This document shows, piece by piece, positions 20,399 through 52,215 of a stretch of 64,000 bases of DNA. How positions within the stretch are numbered: the stretch's first letter is position 1; every line of letters begins with the position of its first letter. The notes beneath the pieces were generated by a model. The model was not told the DNA's origin. It was given only the letters and a program-made list of their open reading frames with translations, and ran no database searches. Made by a program: the position numbers and the translations under genes. The stretch comes from Escherichia phage Murica, in the sequence record NC_041871.1, one strand, 5' to 3'.

Positions 20399-22518
20399 AA
20401 GTTGTAAAACGGGACGGTAGAGAAGAGGTCTATAACGGAATTAAGGTGATCAAGGCGGCAGAGTCCGCCTTACTTGAGTCTGGACATACTGAAGAAGAAG
20501 CTTACCGGATCGCTTGTGCGGTTAATGAAGTTGTTGCTAACAATCTACCAACCGACCAGTGCACAATCTCTGTAAAAAATATCCATATCCTTGTTGAAGA
20601 TGCTCTTATGGATATGGGTTTAAAATGTGCAGCCAGAGAATACATCCAGTATAGACAGACAAGAGATAATAACAGAGAGGCAGGTGGAAAACTGCTTGCA
20701 GATATTAGTGGCTTCTTGGATCGAACTTGTGATGAATTTACAAAAGAAAACGCAAATAAGCCTACCAATCATGTACACACTCATCGTGACCTGCTTGCAG
20801 GCATCCTTAGCAAACACCTTGCATCAACACAGATCCTGCCAGACCGTGTCTCAGAAGAGCACAATAAAGGCTTCATCCATGTGCATGATCTTGACTACTT
20901 GATCAGTCCGTTAACAAACTGTTGTTTGGTAAATTATCCAGATATGTTGGAAAACGGATTCAACATTGGTAACGCCCATGTCAGTAAGCCGAAGTCAATA
21001 GGGGTTGCAACAACAATCCTTAGCCAAATCTCTAGTGCGGTAGCTAGTGCTCAATATGGGGGTCAGACTATGAGCCATATTGATCATTATCTGGCACAGT
21101 ATGCTGAGGCGACTTATGAGAAGAACCTTAAATTTTGCCAGGAACATTGGTTGCCAGATGCTGAGACTGTTGCAATGCAGATGACAGATAAAGACGTATT
21201 TGACAGCATGCAGACTTTACTCTATCAAATCAATACGTTAACTTCTGTCAACGGGCAAACCCCATTCATCACATTAAGTTTAGGTCTGGACACCTCAGTC
21301 TTTGGTAGAATGATTACCAAAAACTACTTGAAAGTCCACAAAATGGGTCTTGGTGAAGAACGTATCACACCTGTGTTCCCTAAAGTGTTGTTCTTCCTAG
21401 AAGAGGGTGTCAACATGAACCCTGGAGATCCTAACTATGATTTGAAACGATTAGCTCTGGAATGCTCTGCAGAGCGGATTTATCCTGACTTTGTTTCTGT
21501 TCCACTAAATCGTAAAGTGACAGGCTCGACAGATGGCAAAGTAACGAGCATGGGTTGCCGGAGTTTTCTTAGCAAATACAGTGACTTGGAAACAGGCGAG
21601 GAGAAATATCTTGGCAGATTTAACTTAGGCGTTGTTAGCCTTAACCTACCAATGATTGCGGCAAAAGCTAAGACGGAAGGTGTTGATTTCTTTGCAGTTC
21701 TTGACGAATACTTGGATCTTGCATACGAGGCTCACCTTGTAAGGGTTAACCGTCTAAAAGGAACAAAGGCAGGGCAGAACCCCATCATGTGGTGTGAAGG
21801 AGCTCTTGCTCGCCTGGATCCTGAAGAGAGTGTTGATAAACTCTTCTATGACGGGTACGCTTCCATCAGTATTGGGTATATTGGTGTGTATGAAACCTGT
21901 CAGATTTTGGGTAGAGAGGGTGACAAGGCTTTAGCTCTTGGAATCCTTCAGCACATGAGAGATGCTTGTGAGCGATACAAGAAGGAAAGTAGACTAGCGT
22001 TTAGCTTGTACGGCACTCCTTCTGAGAGTCTATGCTATAAAGCTGCAACCTGTCTGGATCGTGAATATCCGGAAGTGTTGAAGCACGAGCATGAATATCT
22101 CACCAACAGTTTCCATCAGCCAGTATGGATAAATAGCTCTCCTTTTGATAAGTGGGAGTATGAGGAAGGTTTTGCTATGATCTCCTCTGGTGGCAACATC
22201 GGATACGTAGAGACACCTAACCTGAAAAACAACTTGGATGCTTTAGAGGCTCTTGTTGACTTCGGGTATAAACACATTATGTATTTTGGTATTAACCAAC
22301 CTGTGGATAAATGTCTCAAGTGTGGTTTCTCTGGTGAGTTCAGTGCAACAGCTAAAGGGTTCTGCTGCCCTGCGTGCGGATGCCACGATGAACAATATAT
22401 CTCAGTGATCCGAAGAGTGTCTGGATATCTTTCCAGTCCTAACTCCCGTCCTTACAATAAAGGTAAGCAAGCGGAAGTTATCGAGCGAGTTAAGCACTAC
22501 GGAAGTTGTGGTTGCTGA
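20395..22518 (+). CDS. nrdD: anaerobic ribonucleotide reductase (class III)
   Basis: 707 aa; C-terminal glycyl-radical motif RRVSGY and CxxC zinc cluster. Confidence 0.95.
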   Translation: MKVVKRDGREEVYNGIKVIKAAESALLESGHTEEEAYRIACAVNEVVANNLPTDQCTISVKNIHILVEDALMDMGLKCAAREYIQYRQTRDNNREAGGKLLADISGFLDRTCDEFTKENANKPTNHVHTHRDLLAGILSKHLASTQILPDRVSEEHNKGFIHVHDLDYLISPLTNCCLVNYPDMLENGFNIGNAHVSKPKSIGVATTILSQISSAVASAQYGGQTMSHIDHYLAQYAEATYEKNLKFCQEHWLPDAETVAMQMTDKDVFDSMQTLLYQINTLTSVNGQTPFITLSLGLDTSVFGRMITKNYLKVHKMGLGEERITPVFPKVLFFLEEGVNMNPGDPNYDLKRLALECSAERIYPDFVSVPLNRKVTGSTDGKVTSMGCRSFLSKYSDLETGEEKYLGRFNLGVVSLNLPMIAAKAKTEGVDFFAVLDEYLDLAYEAHLVRVNRLKGTKAGQNPIMWCEGALARLDPEESVDKLFYDGYASISIGYIGVYETCQILGREGDKALALGILQHMRDACERYKKESRLAFSLYGTPSESLCYKAATCLDREYPEVLKHEHEYLTNSFHQPVWINSSPFDKWEYEEGFAMISSGGNIGYVETPNLKNNLDALEALVDFGYKHIMYFGINQPVDKCLKCGFSGEFSATAKGFCCPACGCHDEQYISVIRRVSGYLSSPNSRPYNKGKQAEVIERVKHYGSCGC

Positions 22519-23731: not shown

Positions 23732-24520
23732 ATGGGTCGAGCTAAAGAAACAAAACGCATGCGTGATGAAGCTAGAGAGGCTCGCAAATCTGATCGCCTG
23801 CGTAAGGCTGCTGAGAAATTTGCTGACGAAAGAGAGCACACCGCTCCAGCTCTCCGACCAATGAATAAGAAGCAGCAAAAGTATCTTGATTATCTAGGGT
23901 CACGTAAGATTATTATTGTAAACGGTGTGTTTGGATCCGGTAAGACATTCATGGCATCTGCATATGCAGGTGATCTTCTGCGTAAGAACGAGATTGATAA
24001 GATTATTGTTGCACGTCCTTACGTTCAGACAGGAAAGACTTCAGGATTTAAACCTGGAAATGCAATGCAGAAACTGTGGCCCTATCTTCGAAGCATGATG
24101 GACACGATTTGTCGTCGTGTTGGCAAAGGTGCTTTTGCCGCAATGCTGGGAGACGGTCAGAACAGCCGTATCGAGATTTGTGAAGTTGAAAGCATTCGTG
24201 GTCGTAGTTTCGATGAGCGATGCTTTGTCCTGATTGACGAGGCACAGCAAACTAACCCTGAAGAAATGTTGTCAATTATCACAAGGATCTCTGATCAAGC
24301 CACCCTTGTAATTATGGGTGATAATAGCCAACGTGACATCCCTGGTAAATCTGGCCTTGCATGGGTGACGGATTTCTTTACTCGTCATCCAGATCCTGAG
24401 GTTGGAATGATCAGCTTTGATAGTCCAGACGATGTCGTTCGTTCCGGGTTGGGTCGTCAGATCGCACTCAATCTTATTGATGATCGTGCAAATCATATTT
24501 GGACCCCTGTTTCCGAGTAA
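23732..24520 (+). CDS. phoH: PhoH-like ATPase
   Basis: Walker A GVFGSGKT and Walker B-like VLIDEAQ in PhoH arrangement. Confidence 0.85.
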   Translation: MGRAKETKRMRDEAREARKSDRLRKAAEKFADEREHTAPALRPMNKKQQKYLDYLGSRKIIIVNGVFGSGKTFMASAYAGDLLRKNEIDKIIVARPYVQTGKTSGFKPGNAMQKLWPYLRSMMDTICRRVGKGAFAAMLGDGQNSRIEICEVESIRGRSFDERCFVLIDEAQQTNPEEMLSIITRISDQATLVIMGDNSQRDIPGKSGLAWVTDFFTRHPDPEVGMISFDSPDDVVRSGLGRQIALNLIDDRANHIWTPVSE

Positions 24521-24564
24521 TACAGAAGGGTGGTTATTCCACCCTTAAATATCTAAAACAGTTG

Positions 24565-24593
24565 TTGACAAATAGGTAAGCTTTAGATATTAT
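24565..24593 (+). promoter_or_regulatory. sigma70-type promoter TTGACA-17-TATTAT
   Basis: Consensus hexamers; flanks resemble the promoter at 23172. Confidence 0.65.
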
Positions 24594-24621
24594 TATCGGA
24601 CAAAACAGAGAGAAGGACAGT

Positions 24622-24993: not shown

Positions 24994-26043
24994 ATGAATT
25001 TAACACCTCGCAGAACCATGGTACACGGCATGAAAGAAAAACAGAACGGTTTCGAACCTATGAGTAATAAAATGTTTGGTATGCCGGGCGGTATCATGGA
25101 AACATACAGCTACCCAACACCTGTTGTTGACCACGTTCTTTATATCGACGATTTGGAAGACTTACAAGATCATATGTCTCGCCTGCAGACGATCCGTATG
25201 GCTCAGCCTGAAGAAAGCATTCGAGTGATCATTAACAGCCCTGGTGGTTGCGTGCACATTGCGATGGCTTATCTGCAGGCATTCCGCGAGTCTCAGGCAA
25301 GCGTTGTTGCACATGCTGAAGGAATGTGCTGCTCTGCGGGAACAATCTTATGGCTGGGTTGCAAAGAACGCACTGTGGCTCCGGACACAGAGTTTATGTT
25401 CCACTACTATCAAGGTGGCACTTATGGTAACGGTGTGAACATGAATACTCAGGTCAGCTACTGGAAAAAACGTTTTGAACGCCTGATTGAAAAATACTAC
25501 GGTGGGGTGCTGACAGAAGATGAGATCGCATCCATCACAGCTGGTGGCGAAGTGTGGTTGGACGGAGAAGAGCTGGCAGCACGCACTGGAGCTATTATTC
25601 TGGATGAAGGCAACATACAACGCATCCAGAACGGACAAAAACCGAAAAAGCTTCTGGCAAAAGGTGATGAAGAAGGCGTGTTAGGTGAAGCAGGTCTCCC
25701 GGAGATTCACCAGTGCACATCTTTAGATGAGTTAGTTCATGCTGTTGAATCTGCAAAAGCGGGTGGTTCGAAAGGTGATGTTCACACTGTGTTCCTGAAT
25801 CTGCAGATGGAAAGTGGCGAGACCGTCAGAATTGCCCTGGGTGAGATTACTTCAGAAGATCTGCAGAGATTCTCTGTCGTTGAACTTCAGGATATTCTGT
25901 CTCAATTGAAGACTACTCTGAACGGCGGTGAAGAGGTTAAGGTGAAAGATAAGACTCGCAAGCGTCTGGTGGACAATATTATTAAAACAGCAAAAGAGCT
26001 CAATGAAAAAATCCTGGGTGCAGGAATTGTCGAAGAAGCTTAA
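24994..26043 (+). CDS. ClpP/S14-like serine peptidase homolog with long C-terminal extension
   Basis: INSPGGCVHIAMA and GMCCSAGTIL resemble ClpP oxyanion and catalytic Ser motifs; 349 aa with about 150 extra C-terminal residues. Confidence 0.5.
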   Translation: MNLTPRRTMVHGMKEKQNGFEPMSNKMFGMPGGIMETYSYPTPVVDHVLYIDDLEDLQDHMSRLQTIRMAQPEESIRVIINSPGGCVHIAMAYLQAFRESQASVVAHAEGMCCSAGTILWLGCKERTVAPDTEFMFHYYQGGTYGNGVNMNTQVSYWKKRFERLIEKYYGGVLTEDEIASITAGGEVWLDGEELAARTGAIILDEGNIQRIQNGQKPKKLLAKGDEEGVLGEAGLPEIHQCTSLDELVHAVESAKAGGSKGDVHTVFLNLQMESGETVRIALGEITSEDLQRFSVVELQDILSQLKTTLNGGEEVKVKDKTRKRLVDNIIKTAKELNEKILGAGIVEEA

Positions 26044-26945: not shown

Positions 26946-27185
26946 ATGTACAAGTCATTTTCAATCTACTCAAGACAGGCGAAACACTACACAGAGATCC
27001 TGATCACTCAGAAAAAATCTGTGGAAGGTGAGTGGGAATATCACCATAAAATGTTGCGTCCAGACTGGGTTTTTGATAGACTTATTGCTATGATCCCTCT
27101 CGGAGAAGTATACCCTCTGACAGCCCATCGCGATGCTTGGGATTTAATTGATTACATAGATTCATTTAAGGAGCCTAGATTATGA
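26946..27185 (+). CDS. hypothetical protein
   Basis: ATG 26946 after a GGGGG-containing RBS. Confidence 0.35.
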   Translation: MYKSFSIYSRQAKHYTEILITQKKSVEGEWEYHHKMLRPDWVFDRLIAMIPLGEVYPLTAHRDAWDLIDYIDSFKEPRL

Positions 27186-27580
27186 AGATTGAGATTACTA
27201 AAGAAGGTAAGAAAGTGTCCGGCAACTATGCAACAGTAATTCGGGATTTAATGTTTGAAGCCACCAAGATCGGTACATCTAAAGTTGGTCAAACTGTTAG
27301 TGTGAAAAGTAATATCTCCACAGGAGAGAAGGTATTCATTGTGGTCAAAGGGCAGGATCCCGTGGAAGGAACAGTGGGCCGAGGTGGCTACCTGTGCATT
27401 TCTGAAGAGCCGCGTATGTTAGTGGCTGACGCTACTATGGGTGGGAAACGTGTGTGCGAGGCGGATGAGGTAATGATTATCCAACCTGTTGATCCAGATG
27501 ACCCAGCAACTTGGGTGGTAGGAAATGAAATCTTCTCTTTAGAAGAGTTATCCTTCCCAGCACCGCGCTCTGTTCAGTAA
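27182..27580 (+). CDS. small acidic protein, MK-I/V-E/K paralog family (probable)
   Basis: N-terminus MKIEIT; ATGA overlap with upstream gene. Confidence 0.4.
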   Translation: MKIEITKEGKKVSGNYATVIRDLMFEATKIGTSKVGQTVSVKSNISTGEKVFIVVKGQDPVEGTVGRGGYLCISEEPRMLVADATMGGKRVCEADEVMIIQPVDPDDPATWVVGNEIFSLEELSFPAPRSVQ

Positions 27581-44386: not shown

Positions 44387-44671
44387 TTATTTATTGATAG
44401 CGTGCAGCGGGAAAGCTACGCCAGGTTGATAAATAACCTTTACAACCTCATCAGGACAAAAGAAGTTGCAGAACTCACCGCAGTAGGCCTCATCCTCTTT
44501 CAACTCTTCATTAACATACTCAAAAAAGTAGTCGATGCTTGGATAATCCTGGCCGGGATTATAGTCAACCATCGTTAATAATAACTCTTGATCATTCCGT
44601 AGGATATGCATACCCGCTTTTAAGTATTTTGCTTCCATTTCTACTACATCGCCAGCGGTAACAATAGCCAT
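44387..44671 (-). CDS. hypothetical protein
   Basis: 94-aa acidic ORF. Confidence 0.4.
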   Translation of the reverse strand: MAIVTAGDVVEMEAKYLKAGMHILRNDQELLLTMVDYNPGQDYPSIDYFFEYVNEELKEDEAYCGEFCNFFCPDEVVKVIYQPGVAFPLHAINK

Positions 44672-44873
44672 GATTTTAACTCCTATCTATCTGGTCAATG
44701 ATTGGGGGCCTCCCCCCTCGACAACTCTTATTATCCATATTGTCGGGAATGATGCAAGTACTTCTTTAAAAATTTTTTAAGCGCCTTAGGGCCGTTGTAA
44801 CGTCAAAACAATAAAGGCTATGCGATTGCATAGCCTGCTAGTGTTTAGGTCGCTGTAGGCCCTGCCTGGGGCC

Positions 44874-45224
44874 TTATTTTGCATTCTTGCCTGTATTGCC
44901 GCCACGGTACCAGCGTTTGCGGTGAAAATGGTAATAATCCCCCTCGGCATTAAACATCAGATGATTTTCAATAACCAGCTTACGAAGGTGGGCCGGATCT
45001 TGTTCCATTCTTGCCAGATTCCGGCGGCTGTTACGTAAACGGATAAATTCCATATTCAGGCCGTTGATTGCAGCATGGATGTTAAAGTAACCACCTTTGA
45101 GACGTTCACGCATGGCGTTAAGCTCAACACAATATACAGATTTCTCACAAATCAAGGTATTAGCTAGGGCGCGGACCTGGGCAAGGGGGTTAAGCTCATT
45201 AAGGTAATATAATTTAACTTTCAT
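44874..45224 (-). CDS. hypothetical basic protein
   Basis: 116-aa ORF. Confidence 0.4.
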   Translation of the reverse strand: MKVKLYYLNELNPLAQVRALANTLICEKSVYCVELNAMRERLKGGYFNIHAAINGLNMEFIRLRNSRRNLARMEQDPAHLRKLVIENHLMFNAEGDYYHFHRKRWYRGGNTGKNAK

Positions 45225-45241
45225 AAAATCACCTGTTGAAA

Positions 45242-45550
45242 TTAGTTTGAGAAAACATCGTTCACAATAGCGATCACAATGCCGCTCACCTTGTCACGGT
45301 CAACAATGCACAAATCACCATAGATCATGTGGTAGTCTGGATGATCTTTCACAGAATAGTCAATAAGTGTTTTCTTGTCATCCAGCTTCGTAACTTCCAT
45401 TCTCATAACGATATGAGAATCATCAAAGGCATTATTCCGAAAAGTCATAGCCTGACCGCCAGGGCACCCAGTGATCTCCACTTCCACACCATCTACGATC
45501 TGACCATCAAAGAAATAAAGATTATTAGCCTGGATAAACATGTCTATCAC
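45242..45550 (-). CDS. hypothetical protein
   Basis: 102-aa ORF with AAGGAG RBS, downstream of 45-bp element copy 1. Confidence 0.45.
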   Translation of the reverse strand: MIDMFIQANNLYFFDGQIVDGVEVEITGCPGGQAMTFRNNAFDDSHIVMRMEVTKLDDKKTLIDYSVKDHPDYHMIYGDLCIVDRDKVSGIVIAIVNDVFSN

Positions 45551-45587
45551 TCCTTGTTAACTGCGTGGTATTTTAACAGGGTTTAAA

Positions 45588-45632
45588 TTTACTTTATTGA
45601 TGGCCCTGGAGTCAAGGCCATCTAAAAATAAA
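45588..45632 (-). promoter_or_regulatory. conserved 45-bp promoter/hairpin element, copy 1
   Basis: Minus strand TTATTTTTA-GATGGCC-ttgactccag-GGCCATC-AATAAAGTAAAT; TTGACT in the loop, 18-nt spacer, TAAATT. Confidence 0.55.
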
Positions 45633-45634
45633 TT

Positions 45635-45835
45635 TTACAGGCCTACAATCTCTTTGATTCGTTTAACCGCTGCCTCAGCGCCTTGGGGGTAAAAATTATG
45701 GTAACCAATCACGCGAGTGATACTAATCGCCGTTTGATGATCTTCATAGTCGCCCTTGAAGATTTCTTGACCGTCAATCAGCACGGCAATTTTTTCTTCT
45801 TTTTTGAAGTTAATAACGCGGATATTGTTGCTCAT
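45635..45835 (-). CDS. hypothetical protein
   Basis: 66-aa ORF with AGGAG RBS. Confidence 0.45.
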   Translation of the reverse strand: MSNNIRVINFKKEEKIAVLIDGQEIFKGDYEDHQTAISITRVIGYHNFYPQGAEAAVKRIKEIVGL

Positions 45836-45978
45836 TTTGTTTCTCCTTTCTGGTTTTTGTGGTGGTGGGGATTAGCTCCCCCCGTTGATTGTTATTATCC
45901 ACATTCCGGACCGGATTGCAACACCCCGGAAGAAAATTTTTTTTTTTTTTAAAGATAGGCCCCCATGATCGGGGGCCG

Positions 45979-46098
45979 TTATCAGTTACTTACAGCGATA
46001 AAATACATCCCTACGCCTAACAATATTTCAAGGGCGATGATCTCAAGCCATACCATAGCACGGCGCGCCTTATCGGTGCGGGGCTTATCCTTGGTTGT
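45979..46098 (-). CDS. small hydrophobic peptide (39 aa)
   Basis: ATG after GGGAGGGGG; single TM-like segment; followed by hairpin GGCCCCC-atcat-GGGGGCC; below ORF-track cutoff. Confidence 0.3.
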
Positions 46099-46121
46099 CA
46101 TCGTCTCCCCCTTCCCTCCTG

Positions 46122-46343
46122 TTAGCAGTTACGTGGTTTGCAATGGCCCCCAGGAGTATTATCACCACGCACATTGCAAGAAAAATTATCTCTGTCGTTG
46201 TTCGATCCATTGTTATAAAATTCCTCAAGATCAGGCCTGAAAATAAAGCGTTCGTTATTGAATCCGTCACGCCAGGCGGCTGGCTTCAAATCTTCACTAA
46301 AGGGATTAATTAACGTGGCATTATTTAAACGGTTGGCCCACAT
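46122..46343 (-). CDS. hypothetical protein
   Basis: 74 aa from internal ATG; competes with an overlapping out-of-frame TM ORF (46085-46210). Confidence 0.3.
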   Translation of the reverse strand: MWANRLNNATLINPFSEDLKPAAWRDGFNNERFIFRPDLEEFYNNGSNNDRDNFSCNVRGDNTPGGHCKPRNC

Positions 46344-46692
46344 ATTTTCTATTCCTCTCAAATAGGCGATCCGCCTCAGTTAAACATATCTCATGGGCTT
46401 GATCTCTGGTTTTAGCCTCATCAAAAACCTGTTGTGCCAGGCTGCAGCGTAGGGAGACTGGAAGATCACTATAATAGGCGTTGACAAACGTTTGAGCGTC
46501 GTACAGGTCTGAAAATACTTTACCCTTTCTATTATTCCCCTTGTCAACAATTGCAAGGATAACCAATACAATAGTTGCGACTACCCCCAGGAAAATAGAT
46601 ATAATAAACCATAAAAAGGCGGATCTTCCCATCTTGCCAGCGATCCAGGCGTTAAACAAGGCAACCAATACAGCCAAAATAATAAATTCCAT
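46321..46692 (-). CDS. membrane protein with two predicted TM helices
   Basis: Start moved to ATG 46692 after AAAAGAGG; FIILAVLVALFNAWIAG and AFLWFIISIFLGVVATIVLVILAIV. Confidence 0.5.
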   Translation of the reverse strand: MEFIILAVLVALFNAWIAGKMGRSAFLWFIISIFLGVVATIVLVILAIVDKGNNRKGKVFSDLYDAQTFVNAYYSDLPVSLRCSLAQQVFDEAKTRDQAHEICLTEADRLFERNRKYVGQPFK

Positions 46693-46756
46693 TCTATGTA
46701 CCTCTTTTACAGTTCTGATTAACAATAAGGCGGCAAATATGCCGCCTGTTACCTGA

Positions 46757-47137
46757 TTAAAAATTATCGCCGTAAATCTTTCCGCTTTCTACCCATACCA
46801 CCACGCGAGGCATACTATCCCACACGTCTTGTTTTAGATTGAGCGCGTGCAATTCTTCGGTGGTGCTCATACCGGGCACGGGCTGATTGTATACTGCAAA
46901 ACGACCGCCTGCATAATCATAGGCCAGGGTTAAATCACACTGGATCATCTTTTTGATCATGGCATTAAGCATGGCGTTAGCCGCATATTGATCACGTTTT
47001 AAAGGCAACTCTTTGATTAGTTTGCGATAGTTTTCGATATGGTCGCACACTGTTTCACGTGGAAGATCTTTCATATCCTCGCGAAAGGTAACCAGGTTAA
47101 ACATAACGGTGTCAATGGCTTTAGTGGTGCTTTTCAT
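46757..47137 (-). CDS. hypothetical protein
   Basis: 126-aa ORF. Confidence 0.45.
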   Translation of the reverse strand: MKSTTKAIDTVMFNLVTFREDMKDLPRETVCDHIENYRKLIKELPLKRDQYAANAMLNAMIKKMIQCDLTLAYDYAGGRFAVYNQPVPGMSTTEELHALNLKQDVWDSMPRVVVWVESGKIYGDNF

Positions 47138-47225
47138 GATGTTTTCCTCTTTGTTTTGTGTGGGGCAAACGTCTTGCCCCTTGAGTTTTAATATAGCAGG
47201 TTTTTAGGTTATTGCAACACTTTAT

Positions 47226-47849
47226 TTATGAAAAAGTCATCTCGCCATATTCATCCACATCAAACCGCCAATCATTGGCCTCGATAAGGCCGATCAGGTT
47301 TTCGGTAGTAAATTGTTCAAGATAAGCTTGCTCCAGGTCTACGTAAACCTTGCGGGATAGCTCCCGTACCGTCTCGGTGATCAGCTCTTCCAGCTCTTCA
47401 ACTTTGTCCTCTTGCTTGGTGGTCAGGTCTAGCCAATTAGTATCGATGCACCCTCCTATTGTGTTTTCGTGGTGATAATGGCTAAACGGGATACGTTCAA
47501 CACTGGCTGATAGTTCGCCATCGTGCATTGTGCCGAACAAGTGACGAATTGATCGGAACTTGGTCAGGGCCTTTACTTTACGCAAGAATTTTTCTAAATC
47601 CACGTTTTCCGCACTGATTGACGCGCCGTCACCCTGGCACCAAAAGCCTGACCAATGTACTTCGGTATCTTCAAGGCCATACTCTGGAAAAACATATTCT
47701 TTATAGTATTCAATTACACTTTCTGCAAAAAAGTTATCCCCGCTGTGTTCTTCTCTTTCGCGTACCATTTCAATGGCTTTTTCTTTTTGTTCGTCGGTCA
47801 GCACGTCGAAAGATAAATTGTAACCTGTGGTAATGTTAACGGTGGTCAT
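47226..47849 (-). CDS. hypothetical acidic protein
   Basis: 207-aa ORF downstream of promoter 47908-47935 and a leader hairpin. Confidence 0.5.
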   Translation of the reverse strand: MTTVNITTGYNLSFDVLTDEQKEKAIEMVREREEHSGDNFFAESVIEYYKEYVFPEYGLEDTEVHWSGFWCQGDGASISAENVDLEKFLRKVKALTKFRSIRHLFGTMHDGELSASVERIPFSHYHHENTIGGCIDTNWLDLTTKQEDKVEELEELITETVRELSRKVYVDLEQAYLEQFTTENLIGLIEANDWRFDVDEYGEMTFS

Positions 47850-47877
47850 GATATTTTCTCCTGTTTTCTTTGTTAGT

Positions 47878-47896
47878 GGCGGGAAGTTTTCCCGCC
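47878..47896 (-). promoter_or_regulatory. conserved 5'-leader hairpin
   Basis: GGCGGGAA-N3-TTCCCGCC between the -10 and the RBS of gene 47226-47849; near-identical at 50390-50408. Confidence 0.5.
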
Positions 47897-47907
47897 TATG
47901 TTTTTTA

Positions 47908-47935
47908 ATTATACTTATTGAGATTTACTTGTCAA
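47908..47935 (-). promoter_or_regulatory. sigma70-type promoter TTGACA-16-TATAAT (minus strand)
   Basis: Consensus hexamers. Confidence 0.65.
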
Positions 47936-48185
47936 CACTATTTTTTAAATTATTGTGGCGCAAAATGTTTAAAATCTTCTCAACGTCATCAACACGGCGG
48001 CAATTTTTAAACGCTACCAATTGCCCCATGATTTTAATCACTGGGCGGCCTTGCCAGTGCCCCTGAAGAAAGCGCGCCTTGACTTTATCGGTGGAACTAT
48101 CACGCCACCAAATAGCCTTGTTGTTGCAGTAGTAAAAATTATTCAGGATAACATCAACTTTATCAAAATTTTTTAATTTACGCAT
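47925..48185 (-). CDS. hypothetical protein
   Basis: 86-aa ORF; stop lies within the downstream promoter. Confidence 0.4.
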   Translation of the reverse strand: MRKLKNFDKVDVILNNFYYCNNKAIWWRDSSTDKVKARFLQGHWQGRPVIKIMGQLVAFKNCRRVDDVEKILNILRHNNLKNSVDK

Positions 48186-48363
48186 GGCGTTTACTCCTTT
48201 CTCTCTTTGATGTGGTTAGTATAGCTAACCTGTTGACGATGTCGATGATATTTTTAACGCCACAAAACGGCCCTGGGCGATGTTTTCAGGTTAAAGGGGG
48301 CGATTGCATAGGTGGGGGCCTTTTTGGCACTTATAGGGCCAACCAGGGGCGCTATTCGTAGGA

Positions 48364-48395
48364 TAGAAATAAAAAGCCCCGCACAATGGCGGGGC
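48364..48395 (-). terminator. intrinsic terminator (minus strand)
   Basis: Minus strand GCCCCGC-N6-GCGGGGC followed by TTTTTATTTC, just after the stop of gene 48404-48601. Confidence 0.75.
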
Positions 48396-48403
48396 GTTGG
48401 TTG

Positions 48404-48601
48404 TTATTTGTCTTTATGGCGGTATCGTTCTGCCTGTCGTTCACGTTCCAAAAGCAGGCCCGGTAATTTGCGATCATAGTGATTCCTCCAGATCTTCCCG
48501 AACCTTTTCGGCTTATTCAGTTTATTGTTACGCTGGCGGCGTTCCGGCAGCTCTTCGGAATCGTGGGGGCGCTTTACAATTTTTTCGAAATTAATTTTCA
48601 T
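48404..48601 (-). CDS. hypothetical basic protein
   Basis: 65-aa Arg/Lys-rich ORF. Confidence 0.4.
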   Translation of the reverse strand: MKINFEKIVKRPHDSEELPERRQRNNKLNKPKRFGKIWRNHYDRKLPGLLLERERQAERYRHKDK

Positions 48602-48945
48602 AAATTTCCCCCTTTACTGATTTCAATATTTGCCTGAATCGCCCGGATACGCCGTTTTATAACCTCCTGATCCTTGCAATCATATCCCCAAAAGTCTACG
48701 ATCTTTGCGCCTCCGGCCTTTAGGCGGTATAGTGTTTCTTGCATCTTGTAAGCTGGGATCGGTCGCGGTGTTACCTGGTCGCCTCTCTCATCTTTGTACT
48801 TGATTATGTAGTCTTCGTTGTCGTTGAATACCCAAAATGGGTATTCTGTGAGCGCGTTGCTATCTTTTTCGTTTTTAGATTGGATCTTGTTTACAATTAA
48901 AGCCGTAGCAATAGCGCCAATAATAAAACTAGCCCCGCTGATCAT
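48598..48945 (-). CDS. hypothetical protein with N-terminal TM segment
   Basis: ISGASFIIGAIATALIV N-terminus. Confidence 0.45.
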   Translation of the reverse strand: MISGASFIIGAIATALIVNKIQSKNEKDSNALTEYPFWVFNDNEDYIIKYKDERGDQVTPRPIPAYKMQETLYRLKAGGAKIVDFWGYDCKDQEVIKRRIRAIQANIEISKGGNL

Positions 48946-49019
48946 GTACTTTCTCCTTTCATGGTGTTAATAAATTATCTTTATAGATGGCCCTGCAGCC
49001 AGGACCACCGAAAAAATAA

Positions 49020-49265
49020 CTATTTCACAATGCCTACAAAACAGATCCCGCCTTCACCTATATAAGCAATATCGGTCACTTTGTAGTTGGTCAAGATCTG
49101 TTTATTCAGATCATTAATAAAATCGGTCATTGCGTTGGTGTAGTTGTCTTCCGTATCTAAGGCATAATCCCAGGTGTAAACCTTTTTACGTCCGAAGCCT
49201 TTTACCATGATACGGGCGCTTTTGGTGTTGGTAGGGGCATAATATTTGGTGATTAGTGCTGCCAT
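49020..49265 (-). CDS. hypothetical protein
   Basis: 81-aa ORF with TAGGAG RBS, downstream of element copy 2. Confidence 0.45.
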   Translation of the reverse strand: MAALITKYYAPTNTKSARIMVKGFGRKKVYTWDYALDTEDNYTNAMTDFINDLNKQILTNYKVTDIAYIGEGGICFVGIVK

Positions 49266-49306
49266 GGTTTTAACTCCTATGCATTAGTTCAGTGTTAACA
49301 GTATAA

Positions 49307-49352
49307 AGTTTACTTTATTGATGGCCCTGGAGTCAAGGCCATCTAAAAATAA
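49307..49352 (-). promoter_or_regulatory. conserved 45-bp promoter/hairpin element, copy 2
   Basis: Identical core to copies 1 and 3; TTGACT-18-TAAACT on the minus strand. Confidence 0.55.
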
Positions 49353-49354
49353 TC

Positions 49355-49696
49355 TTACTCGTTTTCTTCCAGCTCCGCAAGCTCTTCTTTTGCTTCTTCC
49401 AACTCTGTCTGCAATTCCTGGTATTCTTCATCGTCCTCAATATCCAGGCTGTCGATGTAGTCGCTAAATCCGCAGCGGTAAGCGATAGGATCTAGCTCCT
49501 TGAGGATACGCGACGGAAGAAAAGAAATGTTTCCGATCATAATTTCGCCGTAGATCTCGTCCAACCATTCATCATAGTTTTCGTCGTACTTGTCCTCGTC
49601 GATTTCAAAGTTATCGATCTTGTCCTCAAGGTCTGCGATCTGTTTTTTCAGTGCGGCAACCTGAATAGCTTTTTCTGCGGCGGTCATAGTAGTCAT
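49355..49696 (-). CDS. acidic coiled-coil protein
   Basis: 113 aa, very acidic; AAAAGGAGAAAAA RBS. Confidence 0.45.
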   Translation of the reverse strand: MTTMTAAEKAIQVAALKKQIADLEDKIDNFEIDEDKYDENYDEWLDEIYGEIMIGNISFLPSRILKELDPIAYRCGFSDYIDSLDIEDDEEYQELQTELEEAKEELAELEENE

Positions 49697-49747
49697 GGTG
49701 TTTTTCTCCTTTTGTGTGTTCTGGGAAGTTTTCCCGTTTATGTGTTT

Positions 49748-49775
49748 AGTATACTGATCTAAGTTAGCTTGTCAA
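49748..49775 (-). promoter_or_regulatory. sigma70-type promoter TTGACA-16-TATACT (minus strand)
   Basis: Consensus hexamers upstream of gene 49355-49696; leader hairpin variant CTGGGAAGTTTTCCCG at 49721-49736. Confidence 0.6.
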
Positions 49776-49895
49776 TTAAAAGTTTAAGAAAAATTTTGCG
49801 ACACTGTTGGCGCTACCCATCAACATTTGCGCCAGGATGTAACCAATGATGCAAACGATAATAGTTACCTTTGTGTGCTGGCGTGTAGTACTCAT
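49776..49895 (-). CDS. small hydrophobic peptide (39 aa)
   Basis: ATG 49893-49895 after AAAGGGGGC; TM-like segment; stop abuts the -35 of the next promoter; below ORF-track cutoff. Confidence 0.35.
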   Translation of the reverse strand: MSTTRQHTKVTIIVCIIGYILAQMLMGSANSVAKFFLNF

Positions 49896-49927
49896 CTTCA
49901 AGCCCCCTTTTTAGCTTAACTGGGATT

Positions 49928-49973
49928 AGTTTACTTTATTGATGGCCCTGGAGTCAAGGCCATCTAAAAATAA
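49928..49973 (-). promoter_or_regulatory. conserved 45-bp promoter/hairpin element, copy 3
   Basis: Same core as copies 1 and 2; immediately after the stop of gene 49976-50371. Confidence 0.55.
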
Positions 49974-49975
49974 AC

Positions 49976-50371
49976 TTAGTAAGTTTTCAGTACTTTCCCG
50001 TCCAGTCTGTCAAGCTGGATCTCGATAGCTGCAGAAAACCTATTATAAACCACATCGCCCATGGAGTCCAGCCAATCTATGACGTTATACACCTGCTCTT
50101 TATTCTTGCAAGTCCGGATCCGTTTCATTACGTAAGACGGATCAATATTAGTGCTCTCGTTGTTGTGGTCATGCGCCTGGCCTGCTGCATTAGTTATAGA
50201 TTTTACAACCACCTGAAAGGGCTTTAAGGTGCCTTTTGCGTTCATCTCACGCGCTTTTGCGGCGCGGTTGTTATATGTTACACAACGGCGGCAAATGTTG
50301 ACCAAATGCATATCAATAATTTTTTCATCGTTTGCCAGTTCGTTCATGATGCGGCGTACGTTCTTATTCAT
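49976..50371 (-). CDS. hypothetical protein
   Basis: 131-aa ORF with promoter and leader hairpin upstream. Confidence 0.45.
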   Translation of the reverse strand: MNKNVRRIMNELANDEKIIDMHLVNICRRCVTYNNRAAKAREMNAKGTLKPFQVVVKSITNAAGQAHDHNNESTNIDPSYVMKRIRTCKNKEQVYNVIDWLDSMGDVVYNRFSAAIEIQLDRLDGKVLKTY

Positions 50372-50389
50372 GATCTTTTTCCTTTGTGT

Positions 50390-50408
50390 TGGCGGGAAAC
50401 ATTCCCGC
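50390..50408 (-). promoter_or_regulatory. conserved 5'-leader hairpin
   Basis: GGCGGGAA-aca-TTCCCGCC between promoter and RBS of gene 49976-50371. Confidence 0.5.
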
Positions 50409-50418
50409 CTTTTGTGCC

Positions 50419-50446
50419 TAGTTTACTTGAATTTTGCAGCGTGTCA
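50419..50446 (-). promoter_or_regulatory. sigma70-type promoter TTGACA-16-TAAACT (minus strand)
   Basis: Consensus -35. Confidence 0.55.
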
Positions 50447-50453
50447 ATGATTT

Positions 50454-50852
50454 TTATTCGTGGGCGCATGTTACAATGTGCTTTTTATAGCCTAGATGAT
50501 CAGCAAGTGCCGACAAAAACTCTTCTTCATAGATCCAGCCGTTGGCAGTGATCCCCATAGCATTTAATGCGCTCTCAAGTGCTGCGTTAGCTTTATCATA
50601 ACCGTATCCGCTGGCCTTGCCGCCAGTATAACCGTACTTATTGTTCTTGCTGTCGTGCATCCAAAAGACGCAATAATGAGTATTACCGCTGGAGGCGGCA
50701 TAATACCGGATCTCAGCTACTTCGTGCAAATTATTGTCATCGTCCAGGCCCACCAGATTATAAGCCTTATAAAATCCACGATCACGGCGGCAGTTCTTGA
50801 CATCAGAAAAAGAAAAGTCCGCATTATCAAAATTAAAGGTGGTGGTTTTCAT
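50454..50852 (-). CDS. hypothetical protein
   Basis: 132-aa ORF. Confidence 0.45.
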   Translation of the reverse strand: MKTTTFNFDNADFSFSDVKNCRRDRGFYKAYNLVGLDDDNNLHEVAEIRYYAASSGNTHYCVFWMHDSKNNKYGYTGGKASGYGYDKANAALESALNAMGITANGWIYEEEFLSALADHLGYKKHIVTCAHE

Positions 50853-51613: not shown

Positions 51614-52215
51614 AATTCTAAATGAGAACTCCTCGCATTTAATAAATTTAATTAGCACGCTAATTACACTCCGTAACAATTTACTATAAAATAGTATCCA
51701 CTAAAATATTCCCATATAGAAATTTTAAAAATCCATTTCTGAAAACGAAAAATCGATTTCGTCCCTAAAAATTTCAGGCCTAGATCCGGAACGATTTCCA
51801 GAAAATCCGATTCAGAAAACGAAAAACAGATCGAGTACTGAGAAATTTATCGAGAAAAATTTTCAGAAAATCCAAGCCCTGAAATGAAAAGTAGATCGAG
51901 TACCTGGAAAGCTGCACCGCAACTTCAAGATAGTGGTTAGATTGTTACCATAGAAGGTCAAGGGTAAGTGGAGGAAGTTCTAGTAGAGGGAGGTTAGCAT
52001 GTGTGGGAAATCTATAATGGTGGCCTGGAATATGGTGCAAACGATAGGATGAGTTATTCAGCTTGTCGCGCCTACTCTGAAAAATCCATTTTAGTTTTCG
52101 ATCCATTTTCTGATTTTCTAAGAATTTTAAAATATCCGGCCCGGTGAAATATCAAAAGGAGGAAATCCATTTTAGAAATCCTCCTTATACTTGATATGCC
52201 AGGAATTTTCAAGTA

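Follow-up and report, generated by a model that had tools for sequence, protein, structure and literature searches.

The 64-kb window analysed here (the whole stretch of phage DNA, 64,000 nt), which belongs to a Vequintavirus (rV5-like) phage, contains a four-member family of intercistronic RNA hairpins located in early accessory-gene operons. As modelled from their fold, the hairpins are probably mRNA processing or stability signals, and the near-identical DNA copies encoding them appear from sequence comparisons to be recombination points at which a gene cassette is gained or lost. Three near-identical copies had been described in the original prediction, and exact occurrences of a 24-nt core, GATGGCCTTGACTCCAGGGCCATC, were indeed found at three minus-strand sites (45599-45622, 49320-49343 and 49941-49964), with 0 matches in 100 dinucleotide-preserving shuffles. 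That description was, however, incomplete, as a diverged fourth copy (71% identity) had been missed, to which a covariance model assigned ~72 bits at an E-value of about 1e-15. The modules are ~49-51 nt long (repeat family D1), and in the 64-kb window the covariance model returned no copies beyond these four, all within one 4.4-kb stretch. The copies, named A to D, and their neighbouring genes are as follows.

45586..45634, minus strand: copy A, with the exact core and a covariance model score of 86.7 bits, lying between a 66-aa gene (stop codon 45635-45637) and a 99-aa gene (ATG 45541)
45610-45615 and 45586-45591, minus strand: sigma-70-like hexamers TTGACT and TAAATT, respectively, of copy A
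48973..49021, minus strand: copy B, the diverged member of family D1, 72.3 bits, lying between an 81-aa gene (stop TAG 49020-49022) and a 115-aa gene (ATG 48945)
49307..49355, minus strand: copy C, supported by the exact core, fold and covariance model, lying between a 113-aa gene (stop codon 49355-49357) and the 81-aa gene (ATG 49265)
49928..49976, minus strand: copy D, supported by the exact core, fold and covariance model, lying between a 131-aa gene (stop codon 49976-49978) and a 39-aa hydrophobic small ORF (ATG 49895)

All copies are oriented alike and placed alike with respect to stop codons, each beginning at that of the minus-strand gene upstream of it. The distance to the next start, previously given as 35-40 nt, covers a wider range, with 27 (B), 32 (D), 41 (C) and 46 (A) nt from the hairpin 3' end to the ATG; for A and D these values use the Shine-Dalgarno-supported ATGs at 45541 and 49895 and not the starts assumed earlier. 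Searches beyond the window, as proposed at the outset, placed the element in one genus, to which it is confined, the relatives having ~3 copies per genome each by blastn; 36 distinct copies from 14 sources were compared. The genes adjoining the copies have homologues in unrelated phages. No blastn match to the element was found in 5,426 E. coli genomes, and no Rfam covariance model matched at the four elements at E <= 1.

The sense RNA of the copies folds into a two-tier hairpin with a folding energy of -20 to -26 kcal/mol and a z-score of -3.7 to -5.4. The GC-rich upper stem comprises 10 bp (GAUGGCCUUG/CAGGGCCAUC, including one G.U pair) capped by the tetraloop ACUC, and beneath it lie a 2x3 internal loop (UA / AAU, conserved in position but variable in sequence) and a lower A-U stem, also of 10 bp. 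This lower stem opens with the final base of the upstream stop codon, and the AGUUUA beside that codon is the pairing partner of the "-10" hexamer. The original prediction of a 7-bp stem whose loop carries TTGACT therefore fell short of the full fold and, because the ACUC tetraloop closes a 10-bp upper stem, the TTG of the "-35" is itself base-paired. Copy C carries one mismatch close to the base of the lower stem, and copy B adopts the same two-tier fold with two additional G.U pairs and a GCUG loop that lacks the -35. Antisense RNA folds far worse (-8 to -16 kcal/mol, against -20 to -24 kcal/mol for sense RNA); specifically, sense and antisense values were -22.0 and -14.1 kcal/mol for copy A and -22.1 and -8.1 kcal/mol for copy B. 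In the comparison set of 36 distinct copies (14 sources), pairing held in 98.8% of 720 cells at pair positions, falling to 34-58% when partners were slid by 1-3 columns, in a sample drawn from one genus at 86-100% identity with alignments (A3 and A4) fitted to the model structure. Four pairs of the lower stem showed compensatory changes on both sides, among them, in copy B orthologues, one that runs through U-A, A-U, G.U and G-C and another through U-A, U.G and C-G. In the upper stem, all five types of change (5/5) were wobble-compatible and none broke pairing. Because all sequences come from one genus at this identity, these changes represent few independent substitution events, and much of the covariation is a single split of copy B vs copies A/C/D. 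Gene conversion, and not purifying selection, could account for the near-identity of A, C and D.

The operons in which the hairpins lie are delimited by the following predicted signals.

50420..50447, minus strand: strong sigma-70 promoter (TTGACA, 16-nt spacer, TAAACT), followed by a 5'-leader GC hairpin
49748..49775, minus strand: strong sigma-70 promoter (TTGACA, 16-nt spacer, TATACT), 11/12 match
48376..48395, minus strand: canonical intrinsic terminator (GC stem then TTTTTATTT), ending the operon with copies C and B
45894-45921, minus strand: promoter-like site at the start of the copy A operon, just past a terminator at 45958-45977
44815..44836, minus strand: intrinsic terminator, ending the operon with copy A

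The operon of the first predicted promoter reads through copy D and that of the second through copies C and B, the two sites corresponding to rV5 promoters P194 and P192, respectively (Table S4, PMC3606486). The hairpin elements appear in neither the promoter nor the terminator lists of that rV5 table, and the annotation of phage HdK5 places a terminator at the site orthologous to 48376..48395 while the four hairpins are not so annotated. Each copy has a strong promoter upstream and a canonical terminator downstream; it directly follows a stop codon and has no U-tract.

At the DNA level, copies D and C bound a 621-bp cassette with the following parts.

49356..49927, minus strand: interior of the cassette, missing in some relatives
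49776-49895, minus strand: small ORF
49748-49775, minus strand: strong promoter, followed by a 5'-leader hairpin
49355-49696, minus strand: 113-aa gene

An exact 621-bp loss was found in ECP26, magaca, phiWec189 and one IMG/VR contig, each retaining a single chimeric D/C copy whose left flank derives from D and right flank from C. These four cassette-less relatives do not cluster in flank trees, which are themselves mosaic, and the cassette interior was present in 113 phage records vs 119-122 with the flanks. In addition, some loop or internal-loop variants recur in non-orthologous copies of one genome, as seen for C and A of isim and D and A of PDX.

Copies A, C and D also contain the reported TTGACT, 18-nt spacer and TAAACT/TAAATT, giving a sigma-70 hexamer match of 9/12 here and 10/12 in many relatives, although 9/12 matches are common by chance (52 found vs 33 +/- 6 expected in 15 kb). 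TTGAC is invariant in the three copies, with a perfect TTGACA in many relatives, and the only variable bases are the sixth of the hexamer and the first of the spacer (loop positions 3-4), a pattern that would also fit selection on the -35. Judged on sequence, A, C and D are possible candidate sigma-70 promoters of moderate strength. A composite cassette in which these promoters restart the next gene while the hairpin mainly attenuates read-through from upstream, in essence the view of the original prediction, is conceivable but rather unlikely. In its favor, a T-rich UP-like tract, TTGAC(A/T), the 18-nt spacer and TAAAYT all occur in copies A, C and D, the T-rich 5' arm falling at roughly -55 to -45, presumably near the expected distal UP subsite, and TAAACT also serves as the -10 of the strong promoter at 50447. 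There is also a precedent in the promoter-early stem-loops (PeSLs) of T4-like phages, in which cassettes joining a promoter to a stem-loop have been validated experimentally and are linked to indels (Arbiol et al. 2010, PMC2839356; Comeau et al. 2014, PMC4122927). Against it, the hairpin is conserved in copy B without a -35, and six clear nearby promoters have 16-nt spacers and a GC hairpin in each 5' leader, whereas the elements have an 18-nt spacer and no such leader hairpin. Efficient intrinsic termination is unlikely because the hairpins have no U-tract, chance yields many 9/12 matches, and strong promoters further upstream already serve the genes that follow the elements.

A more elaborate version, in which an RNase III-type hairpin, a moderate sigma-70 restart promoter and a cassette crossover site share the same 49 nt as a three-in-one "cassette joint", we consider unlikely. 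If true, the processing hairpin would give each cistron its own mRNA ends, the -35 and -10 would be encoded by the hairpin's two tiers, and the crossover site would let self-sufficient gene cassettes enter or leave; such an overlapped design, unlike tandem terminator-promoter PeSLs, would be the first outside T4-like phages.

The recombination data would also suit a neutral or selfish REP- or MITE-like palindrome, spread and homogenised by recombination or gene conversion in a hyperplastic region, with the hairpin as a by-product of no regulatory role. The near-identity of A, C and D, the variants common to non-orthologous copies, the cassette indel with its mosaic flank trees and the confinement to one genus all agree with such a repeat. 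This reading is nevertheless improbable, since copy B has diverged in sequence yet keeps its pairing through compensatory and wobble changes, pairing is far better in the sense strand, and orientation and stop-codon position are uniform. The low copy number (four in one 4.4-kb stretch of the 64-kb window and ~3 per genome in relatives) and the lack of similarity to host sequences also speak against it.

One of the two readings offered in the original prediction was an operator overlapping the promoter, with the -35 sequestered in the dyad. A long dyad does overlap the -35- and -10-like hexamers, and if a dimeric protein of phage or host recognised it as an operator or cruciform in the DNA, the promoter could in principle be repressed. 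A dyad in double-stranded DNA sequesters nothing, however, and differences between the arms preserve G.U pairs only in the sense RNA; on the opposite strand they would give A.C mismatches. As DNA, the hairpins have modest energies (-7 to -12 kcal/mol). Operators are not typically 49-bp dyads whose outer half is AT-rich, and copy B has half-sites that differ from those of A, C and D, making an operator very improbable. Copy B retains the hairpin even though its loop (GCUG, GUUG, GUAG or GUAA) destroys the -35; this, together with the sense-strand bias, indicates that the selected feature is the RNA hairpin and not a DNA operator. An intrinsic terminator is barely credible despite a stable GC-rich hairpin right after the stop codon, since the 3' flank AAUAAAGUAAACU is A-rich and the U-run lies 5' of the stem (a reversed geometry, on either strand), the elements were missed by a terminator scan and by the HdK5 annotation, and the same operons have canonical terminators elsewhere.

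An intercistronic processing or stability hairpin whose DNA copies double as homology patches is, taken as a whole, the best explanation, and we give it about an even chance of being right. Host RNA polymerase would start at the strong upstream sigma-70 promoters and transcribe through every copy, and the 49 nt of sense RNA would form a two-tier hairpin of about two helical turns with its lower stem opening in the upstream stop codon. The hairpin may then work like the early RNase III sites of T7, being cut at or near the internal loop, or may simply block 3' exonucleases; either way the upstream cistron would keep a protective 3' hairpin and be uncoupled from the downstream cistron. At the DNA level, the ~50-bp copies would act as homology patches, D x C recombination having repeatedly removed or added the 621-bp cassette in a PeSL-like manner. 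A modest restart promoter may come from the hexamers in A, C and D, but these are not what the family as a whole conserves. The sequence data establish the copies, their fold and covariation, the strand asymmetry, the setting in operons, the cassette indel and the confinement to a single genus, whereas cleavage or stabilisation, the nuclease involved and any promoter activity are what we infer. The observation behind the original prediction is confirmed in part and its interpretation supported in part, its alternative of a "combined processing and restart signal" being close to what the evidence supports.

Several known systems share some of these properties. Correia elements of Neisseria are repeated inverted repeats with promoter hexamers whose hairpin transcripts are processed by RNase III, and the module resembles them as a repeated inverted-repeat element carrying promoter hexamers and giving hairpin transcripts. 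Correia elements are, however, 100-155-bp mobile elements with terminal inverted repeats, target duplications and hundreds of copies per bacterial chromosome, and the module shows none of this size, these repeats or duplications, or this high copy number. The REP/BIME sequences of enterobacteria are imperfect palindromes located just past stop codons within operons, where REPs act as 3'-exonuclease barriers stabilising the upstream cistron and as recombination substrates. The module is likewise an imperfect palindrome right after stop codons in operons, but it has no similarity to E. coli genomes, is phage-borne with four copies, and forms a two-tier stem whose lower half is A-U.

PeSLs and the module are both short conserved repeats in intergenic spaces of a hyperplastic small-ORF region, both combine a stem-loop, sigma-70-like hexamers and an AT-rich tract, and both flank ORF cassettes that are present or absent in close relatives, with chimeric copies at the junction. 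They differ in lineage (Vequintavirinae for the module, T4-like for PeSLs) and in layout, as the stem-loop of the module overlaps the hexamers, its upper stem and loop containing the -35 and its lower stem the -10, whereas that of PeSLs immediately precedes the promoter. Compared with the strong, near-consensus sigma-70 early promoter that characterises PeSLs, the match in the module is weaker (9-10/12, 18-nt spacer, missing in one copy), and while the PeSL stem-loop is a terminator/attenuator, the stem of the module has no terminator features and no U-tract. Unlike PeSLs, the module has only four copies in one 4.4-kb stretch; the formation of excised mini-circles is a PeSL trait (PMC2839356, PMC4122927).

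The RNase III sites R0.3, R0.5, R1, R1.1 and R1.3 of T7 have no sequence homology to the module; its lower stem is longer (10 bp vs 4-5 bp) and its internal loop smaller, and cleavage is demonstrated for T7 whereas for the module it is proposed. PMC1540722 gives about two helical turns of double-stranded RNA as a criterion for an RNase III signal, a length that corresponds to the 10 + 10 bp of the module around its 2x3 internal loop. This loop would be able to restrict cleavage to one strand, so that the upstream product would keep a 3' hairpin, and the T7 sites have the same layout. The step under the loop-closing pair is U.G/U-A in A, C and D and C-G/U-A in copy B (a possible distal box, in an approximate register), and next to the internal loop stands a G-C pair, a catalytic antideterminant at this position; RNase III determinants fit only partially. 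When the five T7 early sites were folded with the same tool, they gave intergenic hairpins with 9-13-bp upper stems and internal loops at energies comparable to those of the module (-17 to -21 kcal/mol), and the T7 annotation places minor promoters next to RNase III sites within the same intergenic spaces. Both families are hairpins between early polycistronic cistrons transcribed by host RNA polymerase, and in both an internal loop separates a lower stem from an upper stem of ~10 bp.

The element is a real, conserved and strand-specific RNA hairpin module with a recombination footprint like that of the promoter-early stem-loops (PeSLs) of T4-like phages. It is set among consecutive small ORFs on the minus strand that have no known function. 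The region (45000-50500) shares 90-98% identity with 122 phage records, almost all of them from Escherichia phages of the genus Vequintavirus (rV5-like), and phage LL12 is the closest (98.3%). The three copies originally predicted were confirmed, a 24-nt core, GATGGCCTTGACTCCAGGGCCATC, occurring exactly three times on the minus strand (45599-45622, 49320-49343 and 49941-49964) and giving 0 matches across 100 shuffles, although such counts are not probabilities. The description of the module as thrice-repeated holds for these near-identical copies but omits a fourth, diverged one: the repeat finder returned a 51-nt family with a further member at 48973-49023 (71% identity), and the covariance model R1, derived from the copies, recovered four copies only (72-87 bits) in an unfiltered search of the entire 64-kb window, the next-best match scoring 17 bits (E = 0.27).

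Copies of the element
45586-45634, minus strand: copy A
48973-49021, minus strand: copy B (diverged)
49307-49355, minus strand: copy C
49928-49976, minus strand: copy D

Folding of the sense (minus-strand) RNA gave one common structure for all four copies, at -20 to -26 kcal/mol and with z-scores of -3.7 to -5.4.

Parts of the common structure
Lower stem: 10 bp, A-U; begins with the final base of the upstream stop codon
Internal loop: 2x3, UA / AAU, between lower and upper stems
Upper stem: 10 bp, GC-rich, capped by a tetraloop

The predicted hairpin therefore exists, but not with a "-35" hexamer in its loop, as had been proposed: the TTG lies in the upper stem and only ACT in the loop. The "-10" hexamer is the 3' strand of the lower stem. 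Downstream of copy B the true start region, AAAGGAGAAAGTACATG, contains a Shine-Dalgarno sequence. Copies A, C and D are each followed, 8-10 nt downstream, by a C(A/T)GTTAA motif, and the translation-initiation regions 49261-49294 and 44667-44700 are alike (ATAGGAGTTAAAAYCATGGC, repeat family D7).

Conservation of the fold was assessed in a set of 51 copies, 36 of them distinct, taken from the window and from 11 GenBank phages plus two IMG/VR contigs. With alignments A3 and A4 fitted to the model, standard pairs filled 98.8% of 720 pair cells, compared with 34-58% when the 3' partners were slid by 1-3 columns, and the unpaired cells (n=9) all fell in the two pairs nearest the open helix end. 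Both sides had changed at four lower-stem pairs, the independent events being few since the sequences are 86-100% identical overall. One of these pairs runs through U-A, A-U, G.U and G-C and another through U-A, U.G and C-G, both series containing wobble intermediates, as expected of RNA. Pairing was kept in all five types of change seen in the upper stem (A-U to G.U, C-G to U.G, U.G to C-G, G-C to G.U and U.G to U-A), and the remaining variation was mostly in the tetraloop and internal loop. Because G.U pairs turn into A.C mismatches on the other strand, the sense RNA (-20 to -24 kcal/mol) is far more stable than the antisense (-8 to -16 kcal/mol), as for copy B (-22.1 vs -8.1).

The module had also been read as a sigma-70 promoter, and the hexamers were found as described, each of the three near-identical copies having TTGACT, an 18-nt spacer and TAAACT/TAAATT. 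Copies A, C and D never vary in TTGAC, and their loop changes are confined to hexamer position 6 and the adjoining base; many relatives have a perfect TTGACA, and the strong promoter at 50447 likewise has TAAACT as its -10. The T-rich 5' arm of the element sits approximately at the position of a distal UP subsite. Matches of 9/12 to sigma-70 are common here (52 observed vs 33 +/- 6 expected in 15 kb), and copy B and its orthologues keep the hairpin without a -35, with loops GCUG, GUUG, GUAG or GUAA. Six clear promoters nearby each carry a GC leader hairpin ~10 nt past the -10, whereas the elements lack this hairpin and have a spacer of 18 nt.

Promoters and leader hairpins near the elements
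50447, 49775, 47935, 47217, 45921 and one near 44740: clear promoters, all with 16-nt spacers
50391-50409, 49722-49736, 47878-47896, 47162-47180 and ~45865-45885, minus strand: leader hairpins (family D6)

Every element sits between a clear promoter and a canonical terminator, so that the downstream gene already has a promoter. The elements are absent from the promoter and terminator tables of the rV5 genome paper (PMC3606486), which do list the strong promoters P192 and P194 and the terminators, and a literature search for Vequintavirus transcriptome or transcript-end data found none. Promoter activity, predicted for three of the four copies, stands at close to even odds; to judge from the sequences compared, a promoter is not what the whole family conserves. 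An intrinsic terminator was rejected for want of a U-tract: a T-run 5' and an A-rich run 3' of the GC stem amount to terminator geometry reversed, on either strand, and the annotation of phage HdK5 does not call the elements as terminators. The suggested operator overlapping the promoter was not borne out, and a cruciform was likewise rejected, the wobble pairs being asymmetric between strands.

Strong sigma-70 promoters of the early region (16-nt spacer) are followed ~10 nt past the -10 by a GC-rich hairpin, e.g. GGCGGGAAAACUUCCCGCC, after which come a Shine-Dalgarno sequence and ATG. Comparable modules, combining promoter and leader hairpin, lie at 20431-20523, 24507-24597 and 25661-25750 of PVP-SE1. 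By sequence comparison, this promoter plus 5'-leader stem-loop is a second repeated, putatively regulatory module, common to the sister genus Seunavirus, and the stem-loop is plausibly a 5' mRNA stabiliser. Three loosely tandem units of ~65-75 nt with GATCGAGTAC and A/T-rich runs (family D2) occupy 51728-51913, within a non-coding stretch without large ORFs (~51620-51945), and a similar triple repeat at 26986-27194 of PVP-SE1 ends in GATCGAG(A/T)AC. The triple repeat may be iteron-like or origin-like and is a candidate for the "non-coding" box of the rV5 map.

The element was matched by blastn in 119 phage records, at about three places each, and on present sequences is confined to Vequintavirus. 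Further copies outside the window, which the original prediction had proposed to look for, were thus found in Vequintavirus relatives but not elsewhere: the element was not matched in 5,426 E. coli genomes (blastn), no homologue was found in PVP-SE1 (Seunavirus), where only the promoter-plus-leader-hairpin modules occur, and an Rfam scan of 40-56 kb gave no family match at the elements. Pattern scans of IMG/VR and of metagenome contigs (80 of at least 120 matching stretches for the latter) returned chance matches and a few rV5-like contigs with no new variant, these contigs being already-known IMG/VR contigs and two other assemblies. The single plasmid match was PLSDB entry CP057073.1 (137,565 bp), catalogued as a non-mobilizable E. 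coli plasmid; it has three element copies and a length that fits an rV5-like phage, and the entry is probably a misfiled phage genome or pseudolysogen. Seventeen GenBank records (MG0656xx, e.g. MG065690 A135, MG065644 A147 and MG065666 A12a, the last flagged UNVERIFIED) are labelled "Campylobacter phage" with C. jejuni as host and share 95-100% identity with E. coli rV5-like phages over the region; these host labels look doubtful.

For the neighbouring proteins, tblastn found distant homologues in unrelated phages and none in sister genera, so that the comparison of orthologous intergenic sites is limited to Vequintavirus. Specifically, for the 81-aa (49023-49265) and 207-aa (47229-47849) genes, homologues at 30-60% identity occur in Seuratvirus-like siphoviruses, in Pseudomonas phages and in jumbo phages such as phAPEC6 and RaK2, and tblastn found none in sister genera of Vequintavirinae, a pattern consistent with horizontally exchanged cassettes; the 81-aa protein matched two loci only in IMG/VR.

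An exact 621-bp loss between copies D and C, removing a small ORF, the promoter at 49775 and a 113-aa gene, was found in phages ECP26, magaca and phiWec189 and in IMG/VR contig 2051223002_000007. Each cassette-less phage has a single chimeric copy, with the left flank from D and the right flank from C, and its sequence stays collinear to either side. The cassette interior occurs in 113 phage records, vs 119-122 with the element or flanks. Neighbour-joining trees, one for the upstream and one for the downstream flank, disagreed with each other and did not group the four cassette-less phages, which points to at least two independent events or frequent exchange at the D/C point. In some genomes, non-orthologous copies have loop or internal-loop variants in common (C and A in isim, D and A in PDX), which suggests gene conversion. 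Phage V18 lacks a 116-aa gene (~343 bp; window 44885-45227) downstream of copy A; the hairpin elements do not border this indel, so the region is remodelled in other ways as well.

According to PMC1540722, typical E. coli RNase III substrates span two helical turns, ~11 bp from cut to tetraloop is the minimum for good reactivity, and internal loops can restrict cleavage to one strand, leaving a protective 3' hairpin. The modelled element has this substrate shape. The U.G/U-A step beneath the loop-closing pair is present in copies A, C and D and absent from copy B, and a G-C pair, a catalytic antideterminant there according to the same text, adjoins the internal loop; the base-pair determinants fit only in part, the register of the proximal and distal boxes not being fixed by that text. 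For this reason we favour a broader reading, in which the element is most likely a hairpin for intercistronic processing or stability; RNase III is the leading, though unproven, candidate nuclease, and a plain 3'-exonuclease barrier is the fallback. Since the lower stem starts within the stop codon, it would be melted by terminating ribosomes, and folding may depend on translation of the upstream gene.

If this reading is correct, a phage without its own RNA polymerase shapes its early mRNA with T7-style intercistronic hairpins, and the shuffling of cassettes by way of linkers is not confined to T4-like phages but extends to a second group of E. coli myoviruses, one in therapeutic use. The element would then show where accessory genes of rV5-like therapeutic phages can safely be engineered or deleted, and offer a small, well-defined RNA for studying host RNase III or exonuclease action on phage early transcripts.

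Five T7 early intergenic regions, taken here to be the RNase III site locations (the sites are not annotated in the T7 record), folded with the same tool at -17 to -21 kcal/mol into upper stems of 9-13 bp, with internal loops alongside and lower stems that are short. Like the copies of the element, these T7 hairpins resemble one another and sit between genes; minor promoters are annotated next to them, and they lack sequence homology to the element. PeSLs are conserved promoter-plus-stem-loop cassettes of hyperplastic regions in T4-like phages, with chimeric junctions and mini-circles (PMC2839356, PMC4122927). The cassette indel and chimeric junction at the element match the behaviour described for PeSLs, whereas the layout that defines them, with a terminator stem-loop placed ahead of a strong promoter, was looked for in the element and not found. 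By analogy, the element would work like the T7 RNase III signals and the PeSLs while belonging to neither, and it is not a new class of system.
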